DNA of 64,000 nucleotides from a phage, in sequence record PX068455.1. One strand, given 5' to 3'. Made by a program: the position numbers and the translations under genes. Below the pieces are notes generated by a model that searched no databases, was not told where the DNA came from, and saw only the letters and a program-made list of their open reading frames with translations. This document shows, piece after piece, positions 1,972-51,375 of this stretch (its first letter is position 1; each line of letters starts with the position of its first letter).

Positions 1972-2115
1972 GGTGTTTTTACCTCTTAGTTAATTTTCTT
2001 ACAACTTCCCTTCAAAAAAGAATATAGCAAAACTGCCGATCCCTGTCAACCAGGGATAGCATAATTTTTATGTGATCAAGGGGCTTTATTGCCCCTGACC
2101 ATGTAACTTGTTGTA

Positions 2116-2379: not shown

Positions 2380-2439
2380 GATGTTTACCTCTTTGTGCGG
2401 TTCTGATTAGTGGGCCTTTTGGCCCGTGTCATTATCTTA

Positions 2440-2712
2440 TTACTTATGGCGGCAGAATTCAAGCGTTTTTAATTGATAATCTTCCTCAGCCTGGAGTACG
2501 ACCGCCTCGATCATTTCGTTGGCATTGTTAAAGCCATAACCTTTAGCGAACTCATCCGCGCCACCTTCGTGATCATGTTCTGCGTTCATCGCTTCCACAA
2601 AATGGAATTCCAAATTGTTGAGGTAGGGGCTTGATGTTCCGTCCTCTTTTTCGATGAGATCCCAAATAGCATTAAAACGTGATTCGACTTCTTGATTAAT
2701 CCAGCTTGACAT
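2440..2712 (-). CDS. hypothetical acidic protein (90 aa)
   Basis: ORF track; preceded by promoter, hairpin and SD AGGAGAGAGG. Confidence 0.5.
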   Translation of the reverse strand: MSSWINQEVESRFNAIWDLIEKEDGTSSPYLNNLEFHFVEAMNAEHDHEGGADEFAKGYGFNNANEMIEAVVLQAEEDYQLKTLEFCRHK

Positions 2713-2766
2713 AGTGTTTTCCTCTCTCCTGGTTGTTGTGTGGGCACTTTTGCCCCTTCAAGATAA

Positions 2767-2795
2767 ATGTTACCTCACCCCATGGCAGATGTCAA
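2767..2795 (-). promoter_or_regulatory. sigma70-like promoter TTGACA-N17-TAACAT
   Basis: Hexamers read on minus strand upstream of the 2712 start; coordinates approximate. Confidence 0.45.
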
Positions 2796-2826
2796 CGGTT
2801 TTTATAGTTCTTATATGACAGGCAGG

Positions 2827-2843
2827 CCCGGTGATTGTCTCCC
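2827..2843 (-). repeat. Third copy of core motif GGGAGACAAyCACCGGG (minus orientation)
   Basis: Plus strand reads cccggtgattgtctccc, the reverse complement of cores at 12321 and 12455; intergenic. Confidence 0.5.
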
Positions 2844-2929
2844 CCTGTTCCCAAGTGCCGCCCGTTTAATAAGAATAGCAAAAGGGGCCGAACAAGTCAA
2901 CCCCAAAATCAGTACCAAAACACTTTTAT

Positions 2930-3241
2930 TTATACGGTCCGATCATTGGCCTTTGTCCAGGACCTGGCGATCCGTTTCCCGGTCACCTGGAACGGAGGCT
3001 GCATTGTGTGTAATGAGTCCAGAGTAAGGGAGGACCGTTTACGGCGTATCTTCAGGATCGCTAACGTATTGTCCATCTCACGGCCAGGTCCTGGGCGGTA
3101 TGGTGTGCCTCCAGCGTTAAGGTTGATGATCTCATGTATTGAGATCCGGCGTTGTTTTGCTTCCGCATCTTTGAAGATAGCCAGCGGAGGCGCTATGCGT
3201 TGCCGATACCAATCTAAAACGGTTGGCGTAATAGCGATCAT
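2930..3241 (-). CDS. hypothetical protein (103 aa)
   Basis: ORF track; start overlaps upstream stop (ATGA coupling). Confidence 0.4.
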   Translation of the reverse strand: MIAITPTVLDWYRQRIAPPLAIFKDAEAKQRRISIHEIINLNAGGTPYRPGPGREMDNTLAILKIRRKRSSLTLDSLHTMQPPFQVTGKRIARSWTKANDRTV

Positions 3242-3429
3242 ATTTTACCCCCTATGTAGTCCGGTCGGTTTTTCTCTGTCATACGCTTAAGCAATTCTTG
3301 CATGTTGCTTATGGCTTGTAGTGTATCCTCTTCAAGGGATGAATCAAGATAATCAGGATCATTCTTCACCTTGCAATGATTATGATAACGCAGTACCGCC
3401 AGTACTTTTTTAACTTCTTCCGCTGTCAT
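3238..3429 (-). CDS. hypothetical protein (63 aa)
   Basis: ORF track; co-directional, coupled to downstream ORF. Confidence 0.45.
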   Translation of the reverse strand: MTAEEVKKVLAVLRYHNHCKVKNDPDYLDSSLEEDTLQAISNMQELLKRMTEKNRPDYIGGKI

Positions 3430-3437
3430 TATCGCGC

Positions 3438-3572
3438 CTAAAACAATGAGTTAATATATAACACCAGATCGCTGACTACCAGGACAACATTAATCAGCAC
3501 ATACCTAACCATAAAGGGAAAGATCGCCAACATTGCCGCCACGATCCCCATGGTAATAATTATCTTTCTCAT
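3438..3572 (-). CDS. small hydrophobic protein (44 aa), not in ORF track
   Basis: ATG 2 nt after upstream stop; translation MRKIIITMGIVAAMLAIFPFMVRYVLINVVLVVSDLVLYINSLF read manually; no clear SD. Confidence 0.3.
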   Translation of the reverse strand: MRKIIITMGIVAAMLAIFPFMVRYVLINVVLVVSDLVLYINSLF

Positions 3573-3574
3573 GG

Positions 3575-3859
3575 TTAACGGTTCACGTAAGTTTTCCCGT
3601 TCACGGTTATGGGCAGATCCTCCAGGTCTGGATCTTCCTTAAGGTCGCGAGCAAGCTCACCGCACCGGATACCCTCGAATCCGTAGTACTCTGTTGTGCC
3701 GTCCTTAAAAGTTTTAGCGGCAAGGCATAAGCGATAAGTAACCCCGATTTGATTGACGGCATGAATATCCGTTAGATTAACCTCTTTTGCCAGCTCTTTA
3801 GCCATTACAGGCGCATTAAGTCCAACAACCAGGGTAACCACTGCGATCATCTTTTTCAT
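3575..3859 (-). CDS. secreted protein with N-terminal signal peptide (94 aa)
   Basis: MKKMIAVVTLVVGLNAPVMA signal-peptide-like N-terminus. Confidence 0.5.
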   Translation of the reverse strand: MKKMIAVVTLVVGLNAPVMAKELAKEVNLTDIHAVNQIGVTYRLCLAAKTFKDGTTEYYGFEGIRCGELARDLKEDPDLEDLPITVNGKTYVNR

Positions 3860-3950
3860 TGTGTCTATCCTCTTTCTGCTACGTTTAAGGCGGCGGTAAC
3901 CGCCTGTTTATGCTTTGTTGGTTAATTTTCAGGTATCTGTATAAATTAAA

Positions 3951-4166
3951 CTATGCTGTACGCTCAACTATAACAACGGTTTGGGGGATCTCCCCTTCCA
4001 CCACTAGTAAGGCCTTTTTCTGCGTGATAGATATCTTTACCCGTTGCAGCGTGGCGGTGAAGTCTTTCATTTCGTCACGCGGTGTTTTAGTGCAGTACCA
4101 GATCTCAGGCTTGCCGATCTGTAAGTTGCGTAAAAATTCCGTTTTGCCTGTTTTGTTAGTGATCAT
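3951..4166 (-). CDS. hypothetical protein (71 aa)
   Basis: ORF track; consistent with minus array; antisense ORF 3910..4302 rejected. Confidence 0.45.
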   Translation of the reverse strand: MITNKTGKTEFLRNLQIGKPEIWYCTKTPRDEMKDFTATLQRVKISITQKKALLVVEGEIPQTVVIVERTA

Positions 4167-4175
4167 TTGCCAACC

Positions 4176-4280
4176 TCACCCGATACCGTTGGAAGACAAG
4201 ATCATATTAGACATGGTTGCAATCAGGCCAATACCCAGGGCAATAACCAAGATCACTGCATCGATTAATTTCTGTTTCAT
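4176..4280 (-). CDS. small membrane peptide (34 aa), not in ORF track
   Basis: MKQKLIDAVILVIALGIGLIATMSNMILSSNGIG read manually; stop 9 nt before next ATG. Confidence 0.3.
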   Translation of the reverse strand: MKQKLIDAVILVIALGIGLIATMSNMILSSNGIG

Positions 4281-4357
4281 GGTGTTTATTCTCTTCTGTT
4301 AGTAACCTTATTCATGGGGCCGCTACCACAGCCCCAGGGTAAGGCAGCTATGTGCTT

Positions 4358-4603
4358 TTAGTGTTTCATTCCAACCATCGCGGCACGGATCGCCGTAGTG
4401 CTGTACTTGAAGCCGTCCGGGGTCTTATCTTGTCCGGTTAGCTCCAGAAAAAGCATCATATCCCGCGCCGCATCATTACGATTAGCATTGGCGTTAATAA
4501 AGCCTTGGGCCAACCGGTACAATGACTCATCGTTATTAATCCAAAGGCTTACATTCCAATGAGTTTTGTTTTTGTAACCGTTATAACCTTTATTGCTTTT
4601 CAT
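4358..4603 (-). CDS. hypothetical protein (81 aa)
   Basis: ORF 4358..4684 trimmed to internal ATG (residue 28) preceded by SD AAGAGG; TTGACA-N17-CATAAT promoter and GC hairpin lie inside the longer ORF. Confidence 0.5.
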   Translation of the reverse strand: MKSNKGYNGYKNKTHWNVSLWINNDESLYRLAQGFINANANRNDAARDMMLFLELTGQDKTPDGFKYSTTAIRAAMVGMKH

Positions 4604-4690
4604 GGTGTTTACCTCTTCTTTGTTCCAGGTGGCGGACCATTCCACCGCCTTATGTATTATGCTTTGTAAGATGGCTGTTGTCAAACTATT

Positions 4691-4870
4691 TTAACGATAA
4701 TCATCGTACGCTTTATTAACCTGGCGGATATAACATTCAAAAGCCAGATCAATAGATTTATATTCACGGATATACTCACCATAGGAAACCACATACATTT
4801 CTATAGCTTCCTCATATGCGAGGAGAATAGAATCTAAGCCTACGATCTCAGTCTTTGCAATAATAGCCAT
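4691..4870 (-). CDS. hypothetical protein (59 aa), below ORF-track threshold
   Basis: ATG preceded by SD AGAGGAT; MAIIAKTEIVGLDSILLAYEEAIEMYVVSY... read manually. Confidence 0.4.
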   Translation of the reverse strand: MAIIAKTEIVGLDSILLAYEEAIEMYVVSYGEYIREYKSIDLAFECYIRQVNKAYDDYR

Positions 4871-6480: not shown

Positions 6481-6681
6481 TTACAGATCTACAATCTCTT
6501 TAATTCGTTTTACTGCTGCCTCAGCGCCTTGAGGGTAGAAATTATGATAACCAATCACGCGGGTAATACTGATCGCCGCTTGGTGGTCCTCGTAGTCGCC
6601 TTTGAATATTTCTTGACCATCAACCAGCACAGCAATTTTTTCTTCTTTTTTGAAGTTAATAACGCGGATATTGTTGCTCAT
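6481..6681 (-). CDS. hypothetical protein (66 aa)
   Basis: ORF track. Confidence 0.45.
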   Translation of the reverse strand: MSNNIRVINFKKEEKIAVLVDGQEIFKGDYEDHQAAISITRVIGYHNFYPQGAEAAVKRIKEIVDL

Positions 6682-6780
6682 TTTGTTTCTCCTTTTGGAA
6701 CTTTGTCTGTGTGGTGGGGAGTGTCTCCCCGTTGATTGTTATTATCCATATTCTGGACCGGATTGCAACACTCAGGAAGA

Positions 6781-28056: not shown

Positions 28057-29400
28057 TTACTCTAAATCTTCTTCTGAGTCAAGCCTATCTTTCACAACTA
28101 AGTTCTGGGCAAGTTTGTAATAACGAAAGCCCCCACCACCTTGCCAGTTTACAGATTTAGAAATACCACTTTGATCTTCACCATCGATCACTTTTTGCAA
28201 GCGTGGAATAATATGGGTATGACAATGATCTCCTAGCTCAACCGAGATCCAACGTCTTTTCATCTTGTGAGCTACAGCAGCAGTAGTTCCCGAACCGCCG
28301 AATGAATCCAATACTAAATCTCCTTCTCGCGTACACATTTCTAAAATCCGCTTCAAAAGCGCTTCAGGTTTTTTTCCATTTTTGAAACTAACGCCCCCTT
28401 CATTTGCTATTCCATTCCAACTAATGTCAGTCCAAACATCAGTTATTAGTTCAGCAGGCTGCATCTCACCGTCAATTTCCAAAAGCCTATTGGAATAAAA
28501 GACCATTTGCCTACCATTTGCGATATAAAAGCCTTCGACATCCTCATTTGGATGTACATAAACCTTATCCCTATCTTTCTTTGACTTCTCGATAGTTTCT
28601 TTTCTCTTTATTTTGGCACCACCGCCAATTGCAACGGATTGAAATACACGTTCTGCATTATCAATTGCAAATTGTGCTAATTCATAATCAAATGTATCAG
28701 GCAGTTTTTTCTTGGCTTCTTTTGTATCTTTATAGCCATTGGCCTTTGCAAACGCATCGGCAATACCGCACCACGTCCAACTTTTATAATGGTCATCTGG
28801 GTTTAATAGATATTTGTTATATCCCGTATCATACTCTTTAGGTATATAGATTTTGTTAAGTGGTTTCTTGGTACGATCTTTTGCATATACAAGCAAAAAG
28901 TTTGCTGTGGAGAAAACTGTAGTTCCTGTTGCTTTAAAGCCTGAAGGGCAATTTGTAGTCATCGATATGGTATTTAACTGATTTGCACGACCAAAAATCT
29001 CGTCCATCAAGACTTTTAAATAAGCCATTTCGCAGTCATCTAAGTGAACGAATATCACTCCATCATCGCTTAGCAGATTACGAATTATTTCTAATCTGTC
29101 CCGCATTAAGCCCAGCCAAATGGAGTGCTCCAGGCTATCATCGTAGTGCTCAAAATCCCTTCCGGTATTGAATGGCGGGTCTATGTAAACACACTTCACT
29201 TTGCCTGCATACTCTTGCTCTAGTGCCTTCAATGCCAGTAAGTTATCTCCAAAAATCAGTTTATTATCAAAAATATCGTTTTCGGTCACCTTTTTACTGG
29301 CGTGATAAGACTTGCTCGAATCTTCTAACAAAATGTGAGGCTCTAGCTTTTTGCGCTCGTTCTTACCTATCCAGGTAAGTTCTAATTTGGTTTTACTCAT
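28057..29400 (-). CDS. DNA methyltransferase, N6-adenine/N4-cytosine class (beta motif order; 447 aa)
   Basis: Catalytic motif DPPF (IDPPFNTGRDF) near N-terminus; SAM motif FGGSGTT near C-terminus. Confidence 0.8.
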   Translation of the reverse strand: MSKTKLELTWIGKNERKKLEPHILLEDSSKSYHASKKVTENDIFDNKLIFGDNLLALKALEQEYAGKVKCVYIDPPFNTGRDFEHYDDSLEHSIWLGLMRDRLEIIRNLLSDDGVIFVHLDDCEMAYLKVLMDEIFGRANQLNTISMTTNCPSGFKATGTTVFSTANFLLVYAKDRTKKPLNKIYIPKEYDTGYNKYLLNPDDHYKSWTWCGIADAFAKANGYKDTKEAKKKLPDTFDYELAQFAIDNAERVFQSVAIGGGAKIKRKETIEKSKKDRDKVYVHPNEDVEGFYIANGRQMVFYSNRLLEIDGEMQPAELITDVWTDISWNGIANEGGVSFKNGKKPEALLKRILEMCTREGDLVLDSFGGSGTTAAVAHKMKRRWISVELGDHCHTHIIPRLQKVIDGEDQSGISKSVNWQGGGGFRYYKLAQNLVVKDRLDSEEDLE

Positions 29401-29461: not shown

Positions 29462-29803
29462 CTACTCAAGGTCTTCAGAGTCAAGCTCAAAAAGAATCAA
29501 ACTGTGCATGCCTGCAGAGAGATCAACACACCCTGCAACAATAAGGGTTTGATAGTAAGGTTCAGCACCCTCAATATCTTCGTTAAAATCCACAACAAGG
29601 TAGTCACCTTTGTTAAAGGTGTATTTGTCCGATGTAAACGCAAAACCTGCCCAGTCACCTACTGCAGGATCTTTATCAGTCACCTTTGTTAGCAGTAGAT
29701 CTTTTTCACGAGATCTTTTAGTAAAATCGTGAATCACAACATCCTTCTCTTCAGGAGTCGGATTGCCACACACGTAGTTAACGATATTTCTCCACAAACT
29801 CAT
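29462..29803 (-). CDS. hypothetical protein (113 aa)
   Basis: ORF track; coupled to helicase gene. Confidence 0.5.
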   Translation of the reverse strand: MSLWRNIVNYVCGNPTPEEKDVVIHDFTKRSREKDLLLTKVTDKDPAVGDWAGFAFTSDKYTFNKGDYLVVDFNEDIEGAEPYYQTLIVAGCVDLSAGMHSLILFELDSEDLE

Positions 29804-31170
29804 ACGTCCCCCTTTTCTGCTCTAGTTTCAAAATCTTTCCTGACTTTCTCGTCTAAGCCAGGAAAAGTTGTATTATAAAACTCTACGACTCTCGGGTCAA
29901 CAATAATATCCACCTCTCTTAATGGACGCAACAAGTTTATTCCTTGTATCGTCTTAACCCGACTCAAGGCAACATACGTCATTCCGGGAGAGAAAGCTCC
30001 GTTCTTTCCGAGGTCCAGGTTGTAACAATCTAGCGTAAGTCCTTGACTTTTATGTGATGTTACTGCGTACCCTGATTTCAAAGGGAGTTGCTCATAAGAC
30101 CCGATCACAACCCTCTCTATGAACTTCTCCATCTTCCTTTCGGCAATATTGTACCTCTGGGAAGGTTTGTACTCGTTATTCTCCCACAATCTCGGCTCAA
30201 TTTCAACCTGTGCCCCGTCTTCCAGCTCAACTACTACAGATTTGGTCTTGAATTTTACCACTGTGGCGCGTGTCCCGTTGACATAGTACGGAACTTTGTG
30301 GGTAGGGTCAACATCGTTTGAGGTTATCATAACCTTCATCCCTATCTTCAGCCTCATTTCCTGCTCCACAGGCAGTGTGGAAGGGAACTTACCTTTCATT
30401 TTACCAATGTAGGTCTTCTCTGGGGCCTTGATGGCATCATAGAAACGTCTGTTCACCTCCTCTGCTTGCTTATTGGTGGCACAGATGGTCAAGGCATCTG
30501 TTGGGACACCACCATGATAGCAACGAGTGTTAAGCTCTGCTACAACCTCTTTTATGCGACGACCTTCACGAACACAGTTCAACATTGTGGCGAAGCGAAC
30601 AGATTCCTGACGGAACTGGTCTACTAAGGCTATATTGTGAAGATTAAGATCCTCCCAAGATTTTGTATAGCAACACAGATCTGTGTGGTAGAAGTTGAAG
30701 TAGGCCTCCTTCTCCATAGAAGAGACAACTGGAGGTGCTTGGTAGAAGTCTCCAAACAATAACACCTGAATGCCTCCGAAAGGCTTGTCATTTTTCCGAA
30801 GAAAGCGGAGTTTTCTATCCATCTCTATGAACTTGTCAGCACGGATCATGGAGATTTCATCGATAATTAGGATGGTAAATGCCTTGCTTTTCAGAGGCTT
30901 TGCTGTTTTTGCCCTTATTGCTGTCCAGTCTGACTCCATGCTCACACCTGCGGCAAGATCGAAAGTTCGGTGAGCTGTTGCTCCATTAACGTTTAAAGCG
31001 GCTACCCCTGTCGGGGCAACCGTTATGCAAGAGTCTCCATACATGGACTGGATTATGTTGATAAGATATGTCTTCCCTGTTCCACCAGGTCCACTTACGA
31101 AGACATTCTCACCGCTCATGATTGCAACAAGGGCAGCATCTGTGCCTACATCGTACTGCCCTTTTTCCAT
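29800..31170 (-). CDS. SF1 DNA helicase, Dda/PIF1/RecD-like (456 aa)
   Basis: Walker A GPGGTGKTY; Walker B ILIIDEISM. Confidence 0.75.
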   Translation of the reverse strand: MEKGQYDVGTDAALVAIMSGENVFVSGPGGTGKTYLINIIQSMYGDSCITVAPTGVAALNVNGATAHRTFDLAAGVSMESDWTAIRAKTAKPLKSKAFTILIIDEISMIRADKFIEMDRKLRFLRKNDKPFGGIQVLLFGDFYQAPPVVSSMEKEAYFNFYHTDLCCYTKSWEDLNLHNIALVDQFRQESVRFATMLNCVREGRRIKEVVAELNTRCYHGGVPTDALTICATNKQAEEVNRRFYDAIKAPEKTYIGKMKGKFPSTLPVEQEMRLKIGMKVMITSNDVDPTHKVPYYVNGTRATVVKFKTKSVVVELEDGAQVEIEPRLWENNEYKPSQRYNIAERKMEKFIERVVIGSYEQLPLKSGYAVTSHKSQGLTLDCYNLDLGKNGAFSPGMTYVALSRVKTIQGINLLRPLREVDIIVDPRVVEFYNTTFPGLDEKVRKDFETRAEKGDV

Positions 31171-32375
31171 TACGCCTCCTCGTAGATAATGTCGATAGTG
31201 TTACCGTCGCGGTCAACCACGTACTCAATTGGGTCGCCATCTTTGCGTGATTCTGGAGCTACTACGATTTCGTAGCGGCATGCACGGCACTTGGCACTGT
31301 TGTGTTGGTAAGGCACACTAACTACATCAGCAGGGTCAACCATAACCGTCATCACAGTTCCATAGCTCTTTGCATACTCTTTGCTGGCACAGTGCAGGCC
31401 ATAAGAGCATGCAGCTTCCGGATCATCCTCTACAAAGTTACGGGGCATGGATACAAAAGCCCCCTGGTATTGTGGGACTTTACCACTGTGCCAATCCACC
31501 CACTTGTCGCCGTTAAACTGAACCCCTTTGTAGCAAATGATTCGACCATCTTCTGCAATCTGAATGTCGTTTGCCTGCATAAAATCGTAGAGCATGTTTA
31601 CAGATTTTGCAGAAGGATTGCGTAGCAGGCGAACGAGGAATTTCACATAGCGGTCATCCAGTGTTCCGTCTGCATAATCTTTCTCAATTTTCTTTGCAAT
31701 GGTGGATCGCATCTCTACACCGTAGTAGTAGAGCTTACCATCTTTCATGATCAGGTTGTCTGCAAGTGTGGTGAACTCATTCTTGCGTTCCAGCCAGACA
31801 AGGATTTCACCAATTGCCTCGTCATATTCCTGAACAGAGATATGTTCGAAGACTTTCTGGTAAACTTCCTCGCTTTCACTGCGGCGAATTTCAAAAATAC
31901 CTTCGTTGCAGGTGATCTGGAGGAGTTCCCCGCAAATAACCACCAAAGGCTCGATGCTTCGGGTCTGTTGCTGAGACACACTGCTCACCACCTCCAGCAC
32001 CGGGTCTTTGACTTCTACTAAAGGTTCTTCTGACTTGATTGCTACCCCAGTGAACCCTACACCGTGAACAACACACAGCGGATATACCACGCCCCAACGT
32101 TTAACGGAACCTTCTCCTAAATCTAAGATCATGGCGTACTTACCGTTATCTTCCAGCCCATATCGAAATAAACGGGCCTCTTCACGGGTTTCAAAATCCT
32201 CACGGGTGTAGCAGACGCTGTCACGGTCAGGATCGAACAACTCTGGGGCACCTACTGCCAGTGTCCAGGTTGTGTTACCTTTCTCAATAGCGCATGTGAA
32301 ACCCTTCTTCTCAAGCTCTGCACGGCGGTCACGTGCTTCTTTACGAGTTTTGAAATGTTCGTAGATGAAAATCAT
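31170..32375 (-). CDS. rIIB-like protein (401 aa; tentative)
   Basis: Directly downstream of the rIIA-like GHKL gene; ATG with SD AAGGAGA; no catalytic motif; named from gene order and size only. Confidence 0.4.
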   Translation of the reverse strand: MIFIYEHFKTRKEARDRRAELEKKGFTCAIEKGNTTWTLAVGAPELFDPDRDSVCYTREDFETREEARLFRYGLEDNGKYAMILDLGEGSVKRWGVVYPLCVVHGVGFTGVAIKSEEPLVEVKDPVLEVVSSVSQQQTRSIEPLVVICGELLQITCNEGIFEIRRSESEEVYQKVFEHISVQEYDEAIGEILVWLERKNEFTTLADNLIMKDGKLYYYGVEMRSTIAKKIEKDYADGTLDDRYVKFLVRLLRNPSAKSVNMLYDFMQANDIQIAEDGRIICYKGVQFNGDKWVDWHSGKVPQYQGAFVSMPRNFVEDDPEAACSYGLHCASKEYAKSYGTVMTVMVDPADVVSVPYQHNSAKCRACRYEIVVAPESRKDGDPIEYVVDRDGNTIDIIYEEA

Positions 32376-32385
32376 CTTGGTCTCC

Positions 32386-34368
32386 TTATTTGATGTTATT
32401 CTTTGTATCAATCAGTTCACGGTATTCAATCATAGCAGGAGTGTCCCAATATTTCAAGCCTACATGCTTCAAAAGTGGATATTTCTTTTCCAATCTTGCA
32501 ATATAGGCCTTCCCGCACTTAACCCGGTTGGCGATTAAGATTTTGGCACGATGATTTAGCTCACCGTACTTCCACGTGGTGCTACCTTCCCACTTGTGAA
32601 AATGTGGCCGATAACTTCCAAAATCCTGCATGGGGATAATTTTACCTAACTGTCTGTACAGGCTGTCATATGAAGTTTCATTTGCTGCGCGAGTTAGTAA
32701 GAATTTCCAAGCATCCTCTTTCAACAAATGTTCCACATTCTTCTCTGTAACATATTGGCAATCAGGATCAGTCCAAAGCAGACGAGATTCCGACACCAGG
32801 TACAGATCTTCCCCTTCAGGAATCTGGAGTGCCGCACGCACACGGTCATAATCTTGCTGGTAGATGTTGCTCATCTGCCCTAGCCAACAACTTCCGCGTT
32901 GGATATCCCCCTCATACGGTATGCAGTGCTTAATCTTCCTGAACTCTGCCTTAGTAATACGCTCACGCCGGAAGTAACCATCCTTCTCAAGTTTTTTAAC
33001 CCAATAGCCTGGTTCGTAACGGGTTTTGGTTTCACCTTTCTTCGTAGGTCGGCGTGGAAGCTCCGATAACAATTTGACCGTATCTGCAAAAAACGGATGG
33101 TGTGCCGCCTCTTTAAACTCTTTCACCAGATCCGTGTTACGGCAATAGAAAACGTTGCGTCCGGTAATCTCGCTTAAGTAGTTACACTTATTCCGGTTAT
33201 ATTTGCCGTCTCCGTCGTTAAATACTAAATAAACTCCCCGTAAGAATTCTACCTTTCCGTAGCAGGCGTAACCTATGCGGCCTTTATTTAAGCCGCCAGC
33301 GAAGATCTCGCAGTCCCCCAAATTTCCTAGCCCTGTTTCTTCCCAGCGGTCATACATAAAATTCTTACCGAAGATGTGCCCGAACACTCCACTGTTCTTC
33401 ATCATCTCGCGTGCTTCTGAGGATGTTTTTGCTGTCTCCAGTTCTGCAACAACTTCTGCTCCACGAAGGCGAATGCCTTCTTTGACAAAAGCTTCCAAAC
33501 GCTCTTGGAATCCACCATCGTCGTGACCTTCTATGGTCCATTCACGCCCTGGGTTAATATTGCAATCTCCGATAGGGATCTCTACACAAATTGCAGGATA
33601 ATCTATTAGTGTCTCCAGGAACTTAGAACGGTAAGGTTGGTGACCCATTACCACACGACTCTCGTCAGAGCTGGTATAACCCTTCAGGATGGTCATTTTC
33701 CAACCATCCTTCTCGTAGTGATACTGCGCCTCAACCTTGTCACCTTCCAGCATCTTACTGGTCATAGGGTCGGTAACGGTAAACGGAAACTTTGCATAGC
33801 GTAGGCATGACGCAATAGCAGTGCGATATTTCAGGACATGCTCTTTCTTAACATGGAACTGAACTTTTACCCCGTTGTGCTCTTCAGTCTTCCGCTCGCG
33901 GATCTTGGTAACGTTTGGGATACCCTGATCCAAGAACAATAGATATGTGCTTTCAACACCATTGTGCACACTGATAACATCGAAAGTGTCCACCATGCTG
34001 AACGGAGCCTTTGAACCAACACCTTTATTACCTACCAGAGCGTTGCTGTTGCGCTTGGTTGACTCCCCGAGGTTCATGAAAGTGTTGCGGACCATCTCTT
34101 CTGACATGCCCAATCCAACGTCCTGCACAAAGAAGTATGGTTCAAGGTCTGTAGGGGAGTGAATGATGATCGGTACATCACCCCGTCCAGACTCAACATG
34201 AGAGTCCACAGCATTGAAGATTGGTTCACGGCAGCTTGCCAGCACCTTATCTTCGTAAATCCCTTTAATGATTAGCCCAAAAGTCTCTTTGTTCAGAGAA
34301 ATTGAGCCCCTGGTGACCTCCATATTTCCGGTTAGTACTGCTTTAGTTTCATTACTGTTTACAATCAT
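32386..34368 (-). CDS. rIIA: GHKL-family ATPase, rIIA-like (660 aa)
   Basis: Bergerat-fold motifs EPIFNAVD (N box), DVGLGM (G1), GNKGVGSKAPFS (G2); no TOPRIM seen; recalled rIIA similarity. Confidence 0.55.
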   Translation of the reverse strand: MIVNSNETKAVLTGNMEVTRGSISLNKETFGLIIKGIYEDKVLASCREPIFNAVDSHVESGRGDVPIIIHSPTDLEPYFFVQDVGLGMSEEMVRNTFMNLGESTKRNSNALVGNKGVGSKAPFSMVDTFDVISVHNGVESTYLLFLDQGIPNVTKIRERKTEEHNGVKVQFHVKKEHVLKYRTAIASCLRYAKFPFTVTDPMTSKMLEGDKVEAQYHYEKDGWKMTILKGYTSSDESRVVMGHQPYRSKFLETLIDYPAICVEIPIGDCNINPGREWTIEGHDDGGFQERLEAFVKEGIRLRGAEVVAELETAKTSSEAREMMKNSGVFGHIFGKNFMYDRWEETGLGNLGDCEIFAGGLNKGRIGYACYGKVEFLRGVYLVFNDGDGKYNRNKCNYLSEITGRNVFYCRNTDLVKEFKEAAHHPFFADTVKLLSELPRRPTKKGETKTRYEPGYWVKKLEKDGYFRRERITKAEFRKIKHCIPYEGDIQRGSCWLGQMSNIYQQDYDRVRAALQIPEGEDLYLVSESRLLWTDPDCQYVTEKNVEHLLKEDAWKFLLTRAANETSYDSLYRQLGKIIPMQDFGSYRPHFHKWEGSTTWKYGELNHRAKILIANRVKCGKAYIARLEKKYPLLKHVGLKYWDTPAMIEYRELIDTKNNIK

Positions 34369-34865
34369 TTATTGCGCTCCTTGTAGTAGATATGACTCCC
34401 GAACTGAGCTGTCCTCTGCATCTTTTTTGCCCATTTCGGTCGTACTTTGGTTGTATGGTAGTGTGTTGCTCCACCTGTTATGTCCATAGCCATGTATGCA
34501 ACATGGTTGTTATTATAGACCTTTAGAAGCATCTTTGCAAGACTTTTAGCGTGATCCCATGAATCTTTTTCTGTCACCTTAAAAGTTTTGCCGTGGTTTG
34601 TCCACGAAAACTGGTTAGGTTGGTAGACAATCTTTCTTATGGTGTCTGGGTATTTGGGGTGAGATTTCCTGTTTAGGGTGGCAAACCCAGATGCCAGCAT
34701 ACCCATCGTGCCATCCCCTCTAGCTTCCCTGTAGATATTGCATGCTAGAATGTTTTCCTTAGTATCTGATGGCTTGCAAGTATGGTATACTTTTTGTTTT
34801 GGTGCTGCAACAACAGGCAGCGATAAAAATGCGCTCAAAATAATAGCAAAGATCTTAATTTTCAC
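34365..34865 (-). CDS. secreted cell-wall hydrolase, SleB/Hydrolase_2-like (166 aa)
   Basis: Signal peptide MKIKIFAIILSAFLSLPVVAAP; NIYREARGDG..ATLNRKSHPKYPDTIRKIVYQPNQFSW matches SleB-family pattern. Confidence 0.6.
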   Translation of the reverse strand: MKIKIFAIILSAFLSLPVVAAPKQKVYHTCKPSDTKENILACNIYREARGDGTMGMLASGFATLNRKSHPKYPDTIRKIVYQPNQFSWTNHGKTFKVTEKDSWDHAKSLAKMLLKVYNNNHVAYMAMDITGGATHYHTTKVRPKWAKKMQRTAQFGSHIYYKERNK

Positions 34866-34914
34866 AATAACTCCAAATAGAAAATCCCCGCCGAAGCGGG
34901 GGAGGTCTTAGAAA

Positions 34915-35295
34915 TTAATCGTAGTGTGCCAAAATCTCTCCATCGTTGCAAGTTCCCTCTACAAAGTTATGAAGATTCATGCACTCATCTTGATAGAAGA
35001 ATTTACCGCTTTTCAGCCGTAAGCCAAACAACTCCGCATCTCCACGATGGCAAGCCTCTACAAGTTCATAGATTTCATACGGCAACTCTCCGTCGTCATG
35101 GAAGAACCCAGCCTTATCGTTGACATAGATGAAGAAATAATCACTGCTGTCGCAAGCGTCCAATATTTTAAACCAGATTTCATCTACATCTTTTTCTCGG
35201 ATATCGATCACGCAAGTGGAGCTGCATTCGTACTCCTTCTCCGGCTCCTCGGTCAATACCACCAGGTAGTTTCCCCGCTTACCTACTTTAGCCAT
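34915..35295 (-). CDS. hypothetical protein (126 aa)
   Basis: ORF track. Confidence 0.5.
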   Translation of the reverse strand: MAKVGKRGNYLVVLTEEPEKEYECSSTCVIDIREKDVDEIWFKILDACDSSDYFFIYVNDKAGFFHDDGELPYEIYELVEACHRGDAELFGLRLKSGKFFYQDECMNLHNFVEGTCNDGEILAHYD

Positions 35296-35304
35296 ACAAC
35301 CTCC

Positions 35305-36489
35305 TTAAGCTTTAGCCAAAATGGCGCTAAACTCTTCACCAAACTCTTTTACAATCTTCATCAGGTTTGGGTATGCTTTGATCAGCTGAGCAACGATCTT
35401 GTCACGACCTTTACCGATAAGCAAGGCATTTCCTAAGGCATTAGGTTTCATCATCGCCATAAAGACTGAAAATACAAAATCTCGGTTCTCGTCCTTGAAG
35501 TTTTCCCAAAGGAAATCGAGAAAGTTTGCCACACAGCTAACAAGATCTTCGTCGGAGATACTTGCATTTTCCATCATATTACGAATAGCGATGCAACCTT
35601 CAGATCCAAGAATCCACAAGATGTCTGGCTGTTTAGGACCTACGTATTCTTTGCAACCTCCTGCCATAATCCGACCGATTTCCGGTAAGTTGCGTTTCTT
35701 GGTGTGGTAAGTCCAGATCTCTACCGCTGCAGTGTGACCAATAGCACCTTGCAGAAGAACACGGGCCATAGCGTCAGAAATAATACCGCTGTCAAAATCG
35801 TGCAAGATATCAGATGCAGCAACCCAAGATCGCGGTGTGGCAAAAGATGGACAATTAATCTCAGCCATGGCCTCATAATTATCGATAGCTGATGGAACTC
35901 TTTTCAGATATCCAATTACAGAGGAGTGCACCCCATTAAGGAATGCGTAGTCCTCAATAAACACCTCTGCATTGCTTGTAACCTCTACAATGATAAAACG
36001 GTTAGCCAGAGGGGCTTCGAGCGCCGAAAGAACCGCACCATCTGTAGAACGGTTACCAGCAGCCACAAAAACAGACCCCTTAGGGAATGCATAAGTACCG
36101 CACTTGTGGTCAAGCATAATTTGCATTGCAACCTTTTGTAGGTAGTTATCTGCATGAGTGAGCTCATCCAGAAAGATAATTCCGCTCCAGTCAGGATCCG
36201 CAGGCCAAAATTCTGGAATTGCAAACACTGTACGTGTAGTTCCATCCGCTTCTACAGGGATAGGTAGCCCAGATAAGTCGGCAGGATCTTTATCTGACAG
36301 CCGCACGTCAACAAGGTTGTCATCTCGCTCACCGAACATATTATCAGCGATCTGCTTCATCACCTGGCTTTTACCTACACCCATTGGTCCCAAAATTAGG
36401 ACAGATCGGCTATGACGTTGGGCAAACTGAATAATAGCTGGCAACTCACGGACAGTGATTTGACCACTTTCGAATACGTTTCTTGACAT
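35305..36489 (-). CDS. AAA+ ATPase, MoxR-like (394 aa)
   Basis: Walker A GPMGVGKS; Walker B IIFLDELTHA; sensor-like AAGNRS. Confidence 0.75.
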   Translation of the reverse strand: MSRNVFESGQITVRELPAIIQFAQRHSRSVLILGPMGVGKSQVMKQIADNMFGERDDNLVDVRLSDKDPADLSGLPIPVEADGTTRTVFAIPEFWPADPDWSGIIFLDELTHADNYLQKVAMQIMLDHKCGTYAFPKGSVFVAAGNRSTDGAVLSALEAPLANRFIIVEVTSNAEVFIEDYAFLNGVHSSVIGYLKRVPSAIDNYEAMAEINCPSFATPRSWVAASDILHDFDSGIISDAMARVLLQGAIGHTAAVEIWTYHTKKRNLPEIGRIMAGGCKEYVGPKQPDILWILGSEGCIAIRNMMENASISDEDLVSCVANFLDFLWENFKDENRDFVFSVFMAMMKPNALGNALLIGKGRDKIVAQLIKAYPNLMKIVKEFGEEFSAILAKA

Positions 36490-45738: not shown

Positions 45739-48700
45739 TTAACGAGAAAAGGTTGCGTAGGCTTCTAGACGATACTGCTGGTCACCAGGGAACATAACAC
45801 CTATAGAGGCTGTCCCTAGAATCCTGCCTTCCCTTCCAGACTCCATTCTGAACCCTACCCATCCTGAACTCCTTGCAGCCTCGATGTTGTCGCTATACCC
45901 GAAAGTGGCAAGATCGTCAACACCAGCCCCAAACAGCAACTGAAGCTGACTTCTCGGAAGCCCTATAATTTCAGGAATATACGCACCAAAGTACACCATC
46001 TGCCCTACCTTAGGACCGCTGCCGTACTCCATCGGTTTGCTTGTAGAGAAAGTCTTCATACCAGAAGTACCTGCCGGATTAGGGTATGCCCCGTTTGTTG
46101 CTGTACCTATCCACATTCTCCACTGTGGTGCCATCTGTTTAACAGTAAAAGATGTTGAGGACGTTTTGCGGCCTGCATCATCTGTAACTACAAACTTTAT
46201 GGTGACATTCCCAGTAGCTTTAAATGTTACCAGTCCTGTGGTAGCATCCACTGTTGCAATGTTGGTATTGCTACTTTCCCAAGTCTTTCTAATCCCAGAT
46301 ACGTTGGAAGGGGTAATAGAAGGTTCCTGCATCTGCAGTTTACCGCCCACAATCCCTATGCCGTTGCCAGGATTATACAGTGCACCAACCTCGTCTATAA
46401 TGTTCCCTGCTTTGAGACTATACTTCCTTGAGAAATTGTAGGTTCCGTTATAAGTGTGTGTCCCTGAGAAGGTGACATCTGCCTTCCCGTAAGAGATGCA
46501 AACCAACGCATACTTCCTGTCAGGCAACGTTTCTCCAGTCTCTGGGTGAGTTTTACCTACCTGGAACACACTCGGGTCAGTAGAGTCGTGACTATCACTA
46601 ACGGAGCTTGGACCGCCCATCAACTGTGACAAACAATTCCTTACCCATGTCCAGTTATTATCGCTGGAGAAGTCCACAGTCAAATCAAACACAACCCACT
46701 CATTTGGCTTCCACACAGGTGTTGTAATGGACTTGCCTACACCACCTCCTTGGAGTGTTGCCGACTGTTCAGTGATCAGGGCCGCATAGGCCAGAGTTCC
46801 TAAACTCAGAGTCTGGCTTGCTGTCCTCACTACCTTAGAATCAGCATCTGTGAAGTTGTTGATGATTTGGAATGTGCCATAAGTGTTTTTACAGGTAATT
46901 CTGGCGTTCAGTGTGTCAATCTTCCTCACATCTGCCATAGCAGTGTTAGACACAGAGAAGTCAGAAGCTTTAGCTGAGTTTGCCGCAACAGCAGGATCAA
47001 CGTTAAGAGTTGCGTTGAACTGACAAGCAGGAGTAACCAGTAGCTTGTTATCACCTATTTGCTTCCATGAAACACTTTGAACAGGGAGATTCCATTTAAT
47101 ACCTGAGAAAACCTTAGCAACCCTTGGCCCCAAAGCTCCAGTCCTGTTGTCTTTACAGCACATAGACATGGTGATCGTTGACGGAGTGGCCTGACCAAAT
47201 AATTGCTGTGCTTTTGCAGAGGACATAGTGTAGAAATTGTCCTTAACAAACTCATCAGCAGCTAAAGATCCATCAGCTCTCCACCACTGAACCTGATACC
47301 CTGTTTTGTCCCAACCACCGACCTGCTTCAAGTCCTCCCAGGAGATTTCCAGATCCCCGGTGGTAGGATTGATTGCAGCAGTTCCTGGTGTTCCAGATGA
47401 CCATATTGGAATATCGAACCACGCTGGTTTAACCGACTGCACTGCGCTGGGACCTATTGCGGCAGCAAGTTGCTGGCCCATCAATACGCGAGCATCTTTC
47501 ACCAGACCCCACTCAATCATAGACCCAGAGTAACCTTCTTTCTTGTAGGCTGAGGATCCGTTCAAATGGATGAGTCGGCTTGTGCCAAAGTTATGTGCTC
47601 CACCACCGTTGTCGTCTGCAAAATTGGTTATGATTCTGTCCCTGATATTTTTCCATGCCCTGCCTCCAATCTCGTAGTCATGGTCATAACATCTTTGCAG
47701 TGTTGTCCAGCAAATGATCGCCATCCTTCTACCATTGCTGAAGCCAAAGGCCTGATCGTTAAGCTCTCTCCACAAGTAGCAGTTGGTGGTCCACATGGCC
47801 CTATGAATGTTAAACCAGTTTATAGATTTGGCTGAGTTGTTCCACTGAGTCCCAGGTAATTCAGGCCATACTGCATTAACCAGCATGTCTTCTGTTCCTG
47901 CATCAACCAAGAACCCTCTCACCTTCTTACCCATGCCTACCCTATCTTTTGCAATCCAACTGCCAAACAATCTCAGTTTTGGACCGTAGACAACATCTTC
48001 CGGATGCTCAAAAGAAATATATTTTAGGTATATTGTAGGGTCACCATAGGTGCCATCACAAACAGCTTTGTGCATGTTCTCACCAAGGTCTAGACGAAGT
48101 CCTGTTACAACTCTAGACGTGTCGGTGAATTTGTCTGTTAAATCAAACTCATACCACCACCAACCTGCACCCAACAATACTTTCTTACAACGCTGTGCAT
48201 CTGTATCAGATATTCTCTTATCGCCTGCAAAAGGTGAGTCAGCAAACTGATAGTGCAGAGCAACCTCAAAAGGATGTGTGGATGTCCCGTTTTCTGCAAG
48301 AACTTGTTTACCTATCAGGTCGCACTTAATGATCATCACAACACGTTTGTATCCGTTTGTTACCGGAATTTGCATGGACATGGATGTCCCATCCATGTTT
48401 GATCTCAGTGCAGTCATGATGATATAAGGGTCAACGGCATTGCCCAAAGTCTCAGGACCGGGGATTATCTTATACTTCTTGACCTGCCCCATGATGTAGT
48501 CACTTGCGTAAGTTGCCTCATTCAAGCAAGATCCTCCACCAGGTAACTCACCAGGTCCCCAGAAAAATGCGCCGTAACAGTTGTAGAACCACTTGTTAGG
48601 ATCGTATTTATTCTTGAAGGTCTGAACCTCGTTGGCCTGTTTTGTCAAGAAAACCTGCGTGTCTGTGAAGATTGCAGGGTTTACTCTCGCCTGTCTTGGA

Positions 48701-51375
48701 GGGTAACCTGTAGTTTGGTTAAACCACAAATTACAAGAGTAATCCCTCATATAGTCATAATCAGAGTATTTGTTTACATCTTCGTTCCAACACATGTTTA
48801 GGTTGGTACCGCCCATGCATACAATATATTCTGCGACATACTTATCACTTCTGGTAGGAATACCTATGAACCATCTGTTAACAGGCTCATCCCAAGCTGT
48901 GCGCTCATCTTTAACGCAGATAGCAATCCAGTCATGTGTTCCTGTTTTCTTGCACACATCTCGCTTCATACCATAGTAGAACTCTTTAGTATTCGGCTCA
49001 GGTGCATTTATCAGGTAACTCCATGCCTGATTTGCATAAGTTCCATTGGTGCGTGGATCATGATCAAAGGCATACATGATGATCCTTTCCCCACCAAGAT
49101 GTTCGCCAAGAGTAACTTTGACATTCACATCGCCGTAACCATTGCGAACAACATCCATATTGTCAATAGAGATGCCTCTGGGAGTGTAGGCAATCTTCAG
49201 CGAGTTATCCTCACTAGTGCCACCAAGTGTAATCCCTATGTTGTTTGTTGTCCCGTCGGCATATCTTACTGTGGCTTCCCAGCGTATTCCGAAATATCCT
49301 GCATCATGGCTAACAATTTTCAGTGTACGAGCACCAGAGTTAGGTTTTCCAGGATCAGGCCAAGGATTTGGATGTTCATGGACAGTCAACGATGTCCCGT
49401 TTTGCTCGTTGACCTGCAACATTTTACCGCCTCTGCCGTTAGGGTTGAACTCCCACAAGGCTTGTGTTTTCACAATATTGTCATACGTGGTACGTCTCTG
49501 ATCGTAGATCTCCTGAGTCACATCGTAGGTTACAGACCCGGCATCCATTCTATGGAGTCGTACTATATACGATGTATCGCCTTCTACAGCAGGTTGAGCT
49601 GCGTTAAGCCCGAAGTATACAGTATCGTTGACATGGAACTGTTTGTTTCTACCGACAGTATGCCACTTGCCGTTGGACGGGTACGCTGGGACGATAGTGT
49701 TCCAGTTCAAAGTCCTTGTTGTGTGGGTTCTGCCTGTGCCATGTTTGTCATGATAGGTTATTTTTACAGAGTACAGTCCACGTCTGTTAACATTTCTGTT
49801 ATATTGGGTAACAACAACTTCGTTGGCCCCGCCGTGGTTCCAGTTGGTGGAGAATTGGTAATTTGCATCTGTAACAACCGTGCCTGCAGCATTTACCAGT
49901 TCAATCTTGTCAATAATGAACGTAGCCCCCTCTGGCTGAGGCTTCAATTTCATCTTGACCGTGTCACCAATGTAAATATTGCTAACGCTGCTAACACCGT
50001 TAACTTCGAAAATATCATCAACACCCCAACTGTCTACTGGGACATTTTTATACCAATTCTCAGGAACCTCTGTGAACCCCTGGCTATTAAGTCTGCCGCC
50101 AAACAGGTTGTTAGATCCTGCAAAACTTCCCCTTGGGATGCCTGACCACCAAAGTTTACCATTAACAACAGTAAAGGTTCCTAAGAAACCTTCTCTGTGG
50201 ATGCCTTGGAAATAAACACTCTCTGTCCAGCTAACTGGCAGGCGTTGCTCAACATATTTAGCTGTAGCAAGAGCTTGATAGTGGATAAAATTAGCCCTAG
50301 GGCTATTGTTTGCAGATTGTGCACCAATATCATTACACAAGTTGCGAGAGAATCCACGATACTGTTTAGTGCCATTATTGAAGAAAATGCCACTTGTGCC
50401 ATATCCACGAGCCATTATCACCTCATGGGTGTAGGTGATATTTAAGGAACGCCATGTGTCATCTCCCCAGACGTCTTGCCCGTAGAATACGTTAACAAGC
50501 TGCTGGTCATTGGGTTTGTGCATCCTCTGTGTGGCAATTATTGCCCCGTTAGGGCCACACATAAACCCTTTCCACTCCTCATCTGCAGGAATGCCCCTCA
50601 AATCGTTACGAGTAATCTGCACAGGGGGCCAAACAAGGTCGTTTCTACTGTTATTTCTCAGAAAGTCGTATCCAGCAATCCAGAAACCCCTAGGACCACC
50701 GAAAATAACAGAATTGTCATGCACCTCGCAGTTGATGCTTGGGTTTTTCCAAGGTCCTGTTTCAGGATTTTCCGATGTCTCACCAATCTTCACAGGGGTT
50801 GCATGCTGATTTTTATCTACATGTAAAGATCCGTAGGTGTTGTTACCAGATCCATACAGGTTAAGTATGCCAGTACCTTCTGCCTCTGCAATAACCCAGA
50901 CAGTGTTGTTAATACCGCCCATCACCTCAATAAGGCGTTCTGGGTGGGTGTCAAGGTGCAATCCTTTAACAATCTGCTCTGGGAGTGGTGTCCACTCGTT
51001 TACGCAAACATCATTACCGCCTGCAGCAGTGGATCCGATAAGACCTGCAGTGCAGCCGATGTAGAAAAACTGGTTATCAAAAGTCCGGATCACAAACGCG
51101 CGGTCTGCTCTCCACACATGATCAACATTCCAGGCTGTTTCGCTCGGATAGTTTATAGGGCTACGATCCCCAGTGCGGCACTCTCCGAACTTGTTATAGC
51201 CGGTAATATTAAGCTGACCATCATCAAAAAGTATAGCTAAGCTATTTACATAGGATACTGTGTTGCTTGTACCATCACTGTTGTCTATTGGGTATGACAG
51301 AACAGCAAGTTCCTTAATTCCACCCCTCTTATCGAGGAAATGACGACCAAGTTTTAGCAAAGGGATTGGAAGCAT
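45739..51375 (-). CDS. large virion structural protein, putative tail fibre/tailspike with Ig-like (Big_2-type) domain (1878 aa)
   Basis: Location in tail module; Big_2-like segment NIATVDATTGLVTFKATGNVTIKFVVTDDAG near C-terminus. Confidence 0.6.
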   Translation of the reverse strand: MLPIPLLKLGRHFLDKRGGIKELAVLSYPIDNSDGTSNTVSYVNSLAILFDDGQLNITGYNKFGECRTGDRSPINYPSETAWNVDHVWRADRAFVIRTFDNQFFYIGCTAGLIGSTAAGGNDVCVNEWTPLPEQIVKGLHLDTHPERLIEVMGGINNTVWVIAEAEGTGILNLYGSGNNTYGSLHVDKNQHATPVKIGETSENPETGPWKNPSINCEVHDNSVIFGGPRGFWIAGYDFLRNNSRNDLVWPPVQITRNDLRGIPADEEWKGFMCGPNGAIIATQRMHKPNDQQLVNVFYGQDVWGDDTWRSLNITYTHEVIMARGYGTSGIFFNNGTKQYRGFSRNLCNDIGAQSANNSPRANFIHYQALATAKYVEQRLPVSWTESVYFQGIHREGFLGTFTVVNGKLWWSGIPRGSFAGSNNLFGGRLNSQGFTEVPENWYKNVPVDSWGVDDIFEVNGVSSVSNIYIGDTVKMKLKPQPEGATFIIDKIELVNAAGTVVTDANYQFSTNWNHGGANEVVVTQYNRNVNRRGLYSVKITYHDKHGTGRTHTTRTLNWNTIVPAYPSNGKWHTVGRNKQFHVNDTVYFGLNAAQPAVEGDTSYIVRLHRMDAGSVTYDVTQEIYDQRRTTYDNIVKTQALWEFNPNGRGGKMLQVNEQNGTSLTVHEHPNPWPDPGKPNSGARTLKIVSHDAGYFGIRWEATVRYADGTTNNIGITLGGTSEDNSLKIAYTPRGISIDNMDVVRNGYGDVNVKVTLGEHLGGERIIMYAFDHDPRTNGTYANQAWSYLINAPEPNTKEFYYGMKRDVCKKTGTHDWIAICVKDERTAWDEPVNRWFIGIPTRSDKYVAEYIVCMGGTNLNMCWNEDVNKYSDYDYMRDYSCNLWFNQTTGYPPRQARVNPAIFTDTQVFLTKQANEVQTFKNKYDPNKWFYNCYGAFFWGPGELPGGGSCLNEATYASDYIMGQVKKYKIIPGPETLGNAVDPYIIMTALRSNMDGTSMSMQIPVTNGYKRVVMIIKCDLIGKQVLAENGTSTHPFEVALHYQFADSPFAGDKRISDTDAQRCKKVLLGAGWWWYEFDLTDKFTDTSRVVTGLRLDLGENMHKAVCDGTYGDPTIYLKYISFEHPEDVVYGPKLRLFGSWIAKDRVGMGKKVRGFLVDAGTEDMLVNAVWPELPGTQWNNSAKSINWFNIHRAMWTTNCYLWRELNDQAFGFSNGRRMAIICWTTLQRCYDHDYEIGGRAWKNIRDRIITNFADDNGGGAHNFGTSRLIHLNGSSAYKKEGYSGSMIEWGLVKDARVLMGQQLAAAIGPSAVQSVKPAWFDIPIWSSGTPGTAAINPTTGDLEISWEDLKQVGGWDKTGYQVQWWRADGSLAADEFVKDNFYTMSSAKAQQLFGQATPSTITMSMCCKDNRTGALGPRVAKVFSGIKWNLPVQSVSWKQIGDNKLLVTPACQFNATLNVDPAVAANSAKASDFSVSNTAMADVRKIDTLNARITCKNTYGTFQIINNFTDADSKVVRTASQTLSLGTLAYAALITEQSATLQGGGVGKSITTPVWKPNEWVVFDLTVDFSSDNNWTWVRNCLSQLMGGPSSVSDSHDSTDPSVFQVGKTHPETGETLPDRKYALVCISYGKADVTFSGTHTYNGTYNFSRKYSLKAGNIIDEVGALYNPGNGIGIVGGKLQMQEPSITPSNVSGIRKTWESSNTNIATVDATTGLVTFKATGNVTIKFVVTDDAGRKTSSTSFTVKQMAPQWRMWIGTATNGAYPNPAGTSGMKTFSTSKPMEYGSGPKVGQMVYFGAYIPEIIGLPRSQLQLLFGAGVDDLATFGYSDNIEAARSSGWVGFRMESGREGRILGTASIGVMFPGDQQYRLEAYATFSR

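Follow-up and report, generated by a model that had tools for sequence, protein, structure and literature searches.

Gene content of the locus

We analysed a stretch of phage DNA of 64,000 nucleotides (nt) from sequence record PX068455.1, hereafter the window, in which three consecutive genes at positions 31170-34865, all on the minus strand, encode a SleB-like cell-wall hydrolase with a predicted export signal, followed by homologues of the phage T4 proteins rIIA and rIIB. The phage is an rV5-like (Vequintavirus) coliphage. Positions 31000-35000 are identical (100% nt identity) to the corresponding regions of Escherichia phages ECP2303 and ECP2309 and 91-98% identical to those of about 120 further rV5-like (Vequintavirus) genomes, with 121 related records matched in total. 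Most of the matching GenBank records label the three genes 'cell wall hydrolase / SleB / endolysin', 'rIIA' and 'rIIB', and the curated genome of MaxTheCat, a relative from the BASEL collection, shows the order MoxR ATPase, hypothetical gene, putative cell wall hydrolase, rIIA, rIIB and helicase. Annotations or published descriptions therefore already exist, for rV5-like phages and the subfamily to which they belong, of all these genes, of the order in which they stand and of the SleB-like hydrolase with its signal peptide.

In the explanation that we favour, with a probability of about 0.8 for the whole of it, the region would be part of a leftward string of genes in the early/replication region of this coliphage, in which a terminator-like hairpin is followed by a weakly initiated (GTG) hydrolase gene, rIIA, rIIB and a Dda/PIF1-type helicase gene. 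The close junction between the hydrolase and rIIA genes very probably reflects a compact operon layout that is typical of the genome, and does not indicate a mechanism dedicated to the hydrolase and the rII proteins. The features of the three genes are as follows.

34365..34865, minus strand: SleB/Hydrolase_2-type cell-wall hydrolase, 166 amino acids (aa), single domain; identified from Pfam, PHROG, fold and catalytic Glu
34806..34865, minus strand: predicted Sec signal peptide of the hydrolase, aa 1-20, MKIKIFAIILSAFLSLPVVA/AP (slash, predicted cleavage site); from hydropathy and the -3/-1 rule
32386..34368, minus strand: rIIA homologue, 660 aa; from PHROG 612, a BLASTP match to T4 rIIA and annotation in about 120 related records
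33799..34239, minus strand: GHKL (Bergerat-fold) ATP-binding domain of rIIA, about aa 44-190; from Pfam HATPase_c_3
31170..32375, minus strand: rIIB homologue, 401 aa, ATG start; from PHROG 609 and a match to T4 rIIB
32079..32375, minus strand: N-terminal extension of rIIB, two beta-alpha-beta-beta repeats (aa 3-42 and 56-99); clade-specific
31953-32078, minus strand: disordered linker of rIIB, about 40 aa (aa 100-141), after the N-terminal repeats
31221..31952, minus strand: conserved core of rIIB, about aa 142-385, common with T4 rIIB; from alignments

A SleB-like hydrolase with a predicted signal peptide

The first-pass annotation, made from the sequence alone, had proposed a SleB-type hydrolase for the gene upstream of rIIA, and this identification was borne out by a Hydrolase_2 match above the cut-off, a predicted SleB fold and a signal-peptide-like N-terminus. 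The match to Pfam Hydrolase_2 (E-value 2.1e-19; 70.4 bits against a cut-off of 27) spanned profile positions 2-100 of 100, and the protein additionally matched PHROG 938 'endolysin' (E-value 1.7e-27) and the SleB structure 4f55 in the PDB (E-value 2.5e-6), with the catalytic Glu aligned. This residue is E47 of the hydrolase, within the motif Y-R-E-A-R-G; it aligns with the Glu of SleB Y-G-E-S-R-G and is invariant in the homologues. An AlphaFold2 (AF2) model of the protein, with a predicted local distance difference test (pLDDT) score of 87.8, returned the SleB catalytic domains 4f55 and 4fet as its only significant PDB matches, at a Foldseek probability of 1.0 and template modelling scores of 0.74-0.77 normalised to the target.

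Against the SleB equivalog profile TIGR02869, the hydrolase scored 48.3 bits, far below the cut-off of 236.5, with only profile positions 83-201 aligned, and the Pfam scan found no PG_binding domain in it. Because of this sub-cut-off score and the missing peptidoglycan-binding domain, we describe the protein as SleB-like and not as an orthologue of SleB. SleB is a lytic transglycosylase, according to the title of PDB entry 4FET, and the modelled fold suggests that the phage hydrolase is probably one as well. Since the host of the phage is Gram-negative, its substrate would be the ordinary sacculus, and not the muramic-lactam cortex.

The N-terminus of the hydrolase reads MKIK-IFAIILSAFLSLPVV-A/A, with a positively charged n-region, an h-region of 15 residues (mean Kyte-Doolittle hydropathy 2.6), V at position -3 and A at position -1. 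The call of a signal peptide is based on hydropathy and on these -3/-1 heuristics, and a hydrophobic N-terminal segment was found in all the homologues of the hydrolase. For the homologue in Certrevirus, a signal peptide has been reported, together with toxicity on expression in Escherichia coli (PMC7344957).

rIIA and rIIB homologues

The 660-aa product of the second gene was matched along nearly its whole length by PHROG 612 'RIIA lysis inhibitor' (E-value 2.1e-123; residues 1-658 against profile positions 1-724 of 725), and BLASTP aligned its aa 1-198 directly to T4 rIIA (28% identity, E-value 4e-21), leaving the C-terminal part unaligned. Both matches uphold the resemblance to T4 rIIA proposed from the sequence. 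The three Bergerat motifs read in this gene at the outset were all recovered, and their residues do not vary when the protein is aligned with T4 rIIA and four further relatives: E48, N52 and D55 in the N box; D83-x-G85-x-G87 in the G1 box; and G113 and G116-x-G118-S119-K120 in the G2 box. HATPase_c_3 (E-value 1.8e-8; 34.9 bits against a cut-off of 25) was the only Pfam domain above the cut-off in this protein, and NCBIfam returned nothing beyond sub-threshold generic GHKL matches.

The first-pass annotation had left room for a second identity of the GHKL protein, as the subunit that carries the ATPase in a type II topoisomerase. All that favours this is the presence of generic ATP-binding motifs of the GHKL type. 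No match to the DNA_gyraseB, TOPRIM or topoisomerase IV profiles was found in the 660-aa protein (Pfam, E <= 0.01); moreover, the rIIA profile was matched in full length, similarity to T4 rIIA was detected, rIIB lies next to the gene, and the topoisomerase subunits of T4 (gp39, gp52 and gp60) are encoded by genes separate from rIIA. A topoisomerase identity of 32386..34368 was thus ruled out by the Pfam, NCBIfam and PHROG scans, and we give it practically no weight.

The following gene had been taken for rIIB from its size and position, and is confirmed as such by matches to PHROG 609 'RIIB' (E-value 1.4e-61) and to T4 rIIB (37% identity over 204 aa, E-value 8e-39). We prefer a start at the ATG at 32375, which has GGAG upstream, over the TTG at 32411 given in the list of open reading frames (ORFs). 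The conserved core holds 35 columns that are invariant across the sequences from the window, Mydovirus-like loci, the uncultured contig L043 and T4, and its AF2 model has pLDDT values mostly between 70 and 95. We found no solved structural relative for rIIA or, at significance, for the rIIB core, and no conserved segment of transmembrane-grade hydrophobicity in either protein.

The two repeats of the rIIB extension have R/A/R/W and F/R/E/A/R/F/D/R/W as invariant positions. One rIIB orthologue has been named 'SPOR domain-containing' by the NCBI pipeline. A SPOR domain, being peptidoglycan-binding, would have linked rIIB to the wall hydrolase if accepted; we rejected it for the extension, as the Pfam match lay below the cut-off and the Foldseek matches were non-specific (E-value 0.61 against the SPOR domain of CwlC).

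Gene junctions and flanking signals

The hydrolase and rIIA genes overlap by 4 nt, as had been read from the sequence: the stop codon of the first and the start codon of the second share the letters ATGA at 34365..34368 on the minus strand. The rIIA gene has a Shine-Dalgarno sequence of its own, AAGGAG, 8 nt upstream of its ATG. Its stop codon is separated from the ATG of rIIB by a spacer of 10 nt that contains GGAG, and the stop codon of rIIB overlaps the start of the helicase gene in TAATG at 31170, so that the helicase belongs to the same gene string as rIIB. We looked in the window for a small membrane-protein ORF between the hydrolase and rIIA, or overlapping them, and found none.

Judging from the ATGA overlap, translation of rIIA may be coupled to that of the hydrolase, and the first-pass annotation had singled out this coupling to a secreted enzyme as noteworthy. 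This view did not hold up. Overlaps are ordinary in such a genome: an overlap is found at 43 of the 134 same-strand junctions of MaxTheCat, with a length of 4 nt in 12 cases and of 1 nt in 18 (together 30/134). Because overlaps are this common, rIIA has its own Shine-Dalgarno sequence and the genes have been gained and lost independently (see below), the connection of the hydrolase with rIIA is not special.

The flanks of the three genes contain the following features.

34886..34901, minus strand: CCCCGC-TTCG-GCGGGG, a terminator-like hairpin with ATTTTCTATT behind it; the hydrolase starts 20 nt downstream
35295..34915, minus strand: conserved 126-aa protein, upstream neighbour
36489..35305, minus strand: MoxR-like AAA ATPase, upstream neighbour
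29800..31170, minus strand: PIF1/Dda-like helicase; Pfam PIF1 E-value 1.3e-33, PHROG 325 E-value 1.1e-110

Read from 34901 to 34886, the hairpin is CCCCGCTTCGGCGGGG, with a T-rich tail, and it may be a transcript boundary or an attenuator. An equivalent hairpin likewise precedes the hydrolase of the Mydovirus-like locus L008, and in the hydrolase-free clade of L088 one stands directly before rIIA. The hydrolase gene itself starts with GTG, with GGAG 6 nt upstream. Among the genes checked, non-ATG hydrolase starts were GTG in the window (34865) and TTG in L008 (6001), each directly behind a terminator-like hairpin. The combination of a non-ATG start and a hairpin would suit a toxic exported enzyme whose expression is purposely kept low, and these two features probably limit the level of the hydrolase. 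A scan for sigma-70 promoters gave 24 matches, compared with 21.7 ± 5.0 in shuffled sequence; as there was no enrichment, we draw no conclusion about promoters.

Distribution of the gene pair among relatives

We searched IMG/VR with the hydrolase alignment, taking the best 80 viral Hydrolase_2 loci, and separately with the rIIB alignment, taking 80 rIIB loci. Of the Hydrolase_2 loci so selected, only 5 of 80 have rIIA/B beside the hydrolase. In the reverse direction, a Hydrolase_2 gene lies upstream in 9 of the 80 rIIB loci, all nine of them Vequintavirinae-like, while rIIA is followed by rIIB in all those of the 80 loci for which the DNA upstream is covered. In the DNA covered for rII loci that are T4-like or more distant (L103-L165), which for about a dozen of them ends just upstream of rIIB, there was no Hydrolase_2 gene. 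A linkage of hydrolase and rII genes as a general rule was therefore rejected: with 5/80 in one direction and 9/80 in the other, within one subfamily, it is a lineage-restricted synteny.

Individual lineages carry different parts of this arrangement. In the nearest sister clade, L088-L092, the order is MoxR, a 122-aa gene, the hairpin and then rIIA, with no hydrolase between them, so that in L088 the MoxR-like ATPase and the small conserved gene directly precede rIIA. These are uncultured contigs of 117-141 kb from sample 3300045988, with about 15 kb of each covered; their rIIB is 48% identical to that of the window, and they have no close cultured relative, the best match in the phage collection having about 74% nt identity over about 8% of the query. 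In Mydovirus-like loci, a hydrophobic ORF of 51-57 aa, sometimes together with an HNH endonuclease gene, separates the hydrolase from rIIA. This ORF (L008, 6536..6691; L009, about 6536..6709) is annotated as 'hypothetical protein' and has one strong and one weaker hydrophobic segment, which makes it holin-like. Certrevirus phages have been reported to carry the hydrolase and an ORF with two transmembrane segments (a putative class II holin), without rIIA/B (PMC7344957). Finally, in the uncultured contig L043 (IMG/VR 3300043467_000795; 893..4735), T4-like rIIA and rIIB genes have a Hydrolase_2 gene before them, whose product is 200 aa long and has a membrane segment at its N-terminus. A promoter-like site and a strong terminator set this gene apart from the rII genes. 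A radical-SAM-like gene lies downstream of rIIA/rIIB in this contig.

From this distribution among relatives, we conclude that the hydrolase and the rII pair behave as separate units, each gained and lost without the other, which happen to adjoin in one subfamily. A different explanation would make the locus an envelope module of the Vequintavirinae: the exported hydrolase would be secreted early and stay latent while the membrane is energised, rIIA and rIIB would safeguard that state, and in Vequintavirus the rII proteins would replace the small membrane partner that the hydrolase has in Mydovirus and Certrevirus. In its favour, hydrolase and rIIA/B are syntenic across several Vequintavirinae genera and adjacent once more in the unrelated contig L043; the genes overlap by ATGA in the window; a holin-like small ORF stands between hydrolase and rIIA in the Mydovirus-like loci and beside the hydrolase in Certrevirus (PMC7344957); and there are links between rII proteins and both membrane integrity and depolarisation-type defences. 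The comparison of lineages speaks the other way. L088-L092, the sister clade, has rIIA/B in an unchanged context but no hydrolase there, in Certrevirus the hydrolase occurs and the rII genes do not, none of the T4-like rII loci carries such a hydrolase in the covered DNA, the terminator and promoter-like site part the two in L043, and overlaps are common in the genome, with rIIA having its own Shine-Dalgarno sequence. Latency of the kind supposed would have a parallel in Sec-exported and signal-arrest-release (SAR) endolysins, which are held inactive by the proton-motive force. We consider the envelope module a long shot, in its safeguarding and in its replacement part alike, and on the comparative data a dedicated mechanism joining hydrolase and rII proteins is very unlikely.

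Relation to the lysis genes

The hydrolase had been described as lying far from the tail and lysis regions, and so it does: no tail-fibre gene is closer than the one at 45748..51375, and neither the canonical endolysin nor the spanins are encoded within the window. In MaxTheCat, a lambda-like lysozyme is annotated far from the hydrolase locus and the spanins lie beside the terminase. LysECP26, an endolysin of the rV5 group, is a lambda-like lysozyme of 156 aa with demonstrated lytic activity (PMC9728275).

These positions bear on the possibility that the SleB-like protein is itself the principal endolysin, exported by Sec and independent of a holin, so that the region would effectively be a lysis cassette. 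The protein is labelled 'endolysin' in the records of ECP2303, Mydo and other phages, matches an 'endolysin' family in PHROG (938), and has homologues of which the one in Certrevirus is reported to be toxic in E. coli and the one in CR3 has been implicated in lysis. It is also conserved across Vequintavirinae genera (PMC7344957), while the second type of lysin varies by genus, being a lambda-like lysozyme, a T5-like peptidase or an M15C peptidase. A separate lambda-like lysozyme with demonstrated activity is nonetheless present in rV5-like phages (PMC9728275), and the spanins are found elsewhere, beside the terminase. Furthermore, the hydrolase is missing from the covered loci of the sister clade, and its gene, which sits among early/replication genes, closely follows a terminator-like hairpin and has a weak start codon, GTG. 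We therefore regard a role as principal endolysin as improbable. Given its lytic-transglycosylase fold, and with the separate lambda-like lysozyme as the lysin that has been characterised, the plain labels 'endolysin' or 'amidase' are not well founded for the SleB-like gene.

Proposed roles of the three genes

In the gene-string reading that we prefer, the hydrolase would be exported through Sec and cleaved by signal peptidase, and would most likely cut the glycan strands of peptidoglycan in the periplasm. There it may accumulate independently of a holin and help in the breakdown of the wall at lysis. It would thus be an accessory muralytic enzyme distinct from the cytoplasmic lambda-like lysozyme, acting either as a helper of lysis or in wall remodelling. 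The rIIA protein, with its intact GHKL ATP-binding site, and the rIIB protein, with its clade-specific N-terminal extension, may be early proteins of the cytoplasm or associated with the membrane that, by homology with the T4 pair, keep the membrane of the infected cell functional. By the same homology, they could thereby counter Rex-type and similar abortive-infection defences. In T4, rIIA/B are needed against RexAB (PMC8594841); rIIB is sensed by bacterial gasdermin systems (PMC10312443); and the rII homologues of Bas63, a phage not of the T4 type, have been implicated against QatABCD (PMC11482910).

Several points weigh against this reading. The order of hydrolase, rIIA and rIIB is kept across Vequintavirinae genera (Vequintavirus, Mydovirus and the relatives L009 and L099) and recurs once in the unrelated uncultured contig L043, and a retained order would fit a selective advantage of linkage. 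In one paper that includes a Vequintavirus, none of the phage proteins analysed is reported to have a signal peptide (PMC10698182), and several genome papers name the hydrolase an amidase (PMC7344957, PMC11370258), although the latter label is doubtful since SleB is a lytic transglycosylase.

The outcome is mostly negative, in that the tight junction is no evidence for a mechanism connecting the hydrolase with the rII proteins, and little is added to the existing annotation. Were the envelope module true, the rII proteins would gain a concrete substrate for their part in lysis timing, and a dependence of the hydrolase on rII, if shown, would make the biochemical mechanism of rIIA/rIIB directly testable.

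Other features of the region and of related records

We additionally identified, near the helicase gene, a gene for an N6/N4 DNA methyltransferase of 447 aa (29400..28057, minus strand; Pfam N6_N4_Mtase E-value 1e-43). It lies in a segment of about 1.3 kb (28085-29396) that is present in the window and absent from MaxTheCat, and that falls in the 2-kb bin of lowest GC content in the neighbourhood (0.40). A direct repeat of 15 nt, TCTTC[T/A]GAGTCAAGC, occurs at 28070 and 29472, and owing to this repeat the methylase and the 113-aa protein that precedes it share the C-terminal peptide ...LDSE(E)DLE. A further hairpin is found at 29427-29444.

Among the records matching 31000-35000, 16 from GenBank are titled 'Campylobacter phage' (host C. 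jejuni), at about 90-95% nt identity. This suggests that they are mislabelled or contaminant genomes in the public collection.

Comparison with known systems

The other Vequintavirus phages (rV5, FV3, ECP26 and MaxTheCat, bas57_0064-0066) have the same gene order and junction layout at 91-100% nt identity, with no material difference from 31170-34865. Certrevirus CB7_83 and its counterpart in Cronobacter phage CR3, CR3_087, are homologous SleB-like hydrolases reported to bear a signal peptide, such as is predicted for the protein of the window. In Certrevirus, a small ORF with two transmembrane segments overlaps the hydrolase and rIIA/B are missing, whereas the window shows the reverse and the Mydovirus-like loci contain both.

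For the rII pair, the closest comparison is with T4, in which rIIB likewise directly follows rIIA. The residues of the N, G1 and G2 boxes are identical in T4 rIIA and the rIIA of the window, the C-terminal core of T4 rIIB is 37% identical to that of the window, and none of the four proteins has a segment of transmembrane-grade hydrophobicity. In contrast, the rIIA of the window is 65 aa shorter than that of T4, with the C-terminal two thirds not alignable by BLASTP, and its rIIB is 89 aa longer, T4 rIIB being without the double beta-alpha-beta-beta module at the N-terminus and the linker. The neighbours of T4 rIIA are rIIA.1 and topoisomerase genes, with no wall hydrolase among them.

The SleB proteins of Bacillus (4F55 and 4FET; Hydrolase_2) have the fold of the catalytic domain and the Glu in Y-x-E-x-R-G in common with the phage hydrolase. 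They differ from it in domain architecture, with a peptidoglycan-binding domain at the N-terminus of SleB and, in the phage protein, a single domain behind a predicted signal peptide instead.

Finally, Sec-exported and SAR endolysins (Lys44 of Oenococcus phage fOg44, Lyz of P1 and R21 of phage 21) are muralytic enzymes with an N-terminal export signal, as is predicted for the hydrolase. Such a signal means that holin holes are not needed for these endolysins to reach the wall. They belong to catalytic families other than that of the hydrolase, and SAR endolysins have an anchor that is Gly/Ala-rich and weakly hydrophobic, whereas the N-terminus of the hydrolase is strongly hydrophobic and resembles a cleavable signal peptide, with a V-x-A site.

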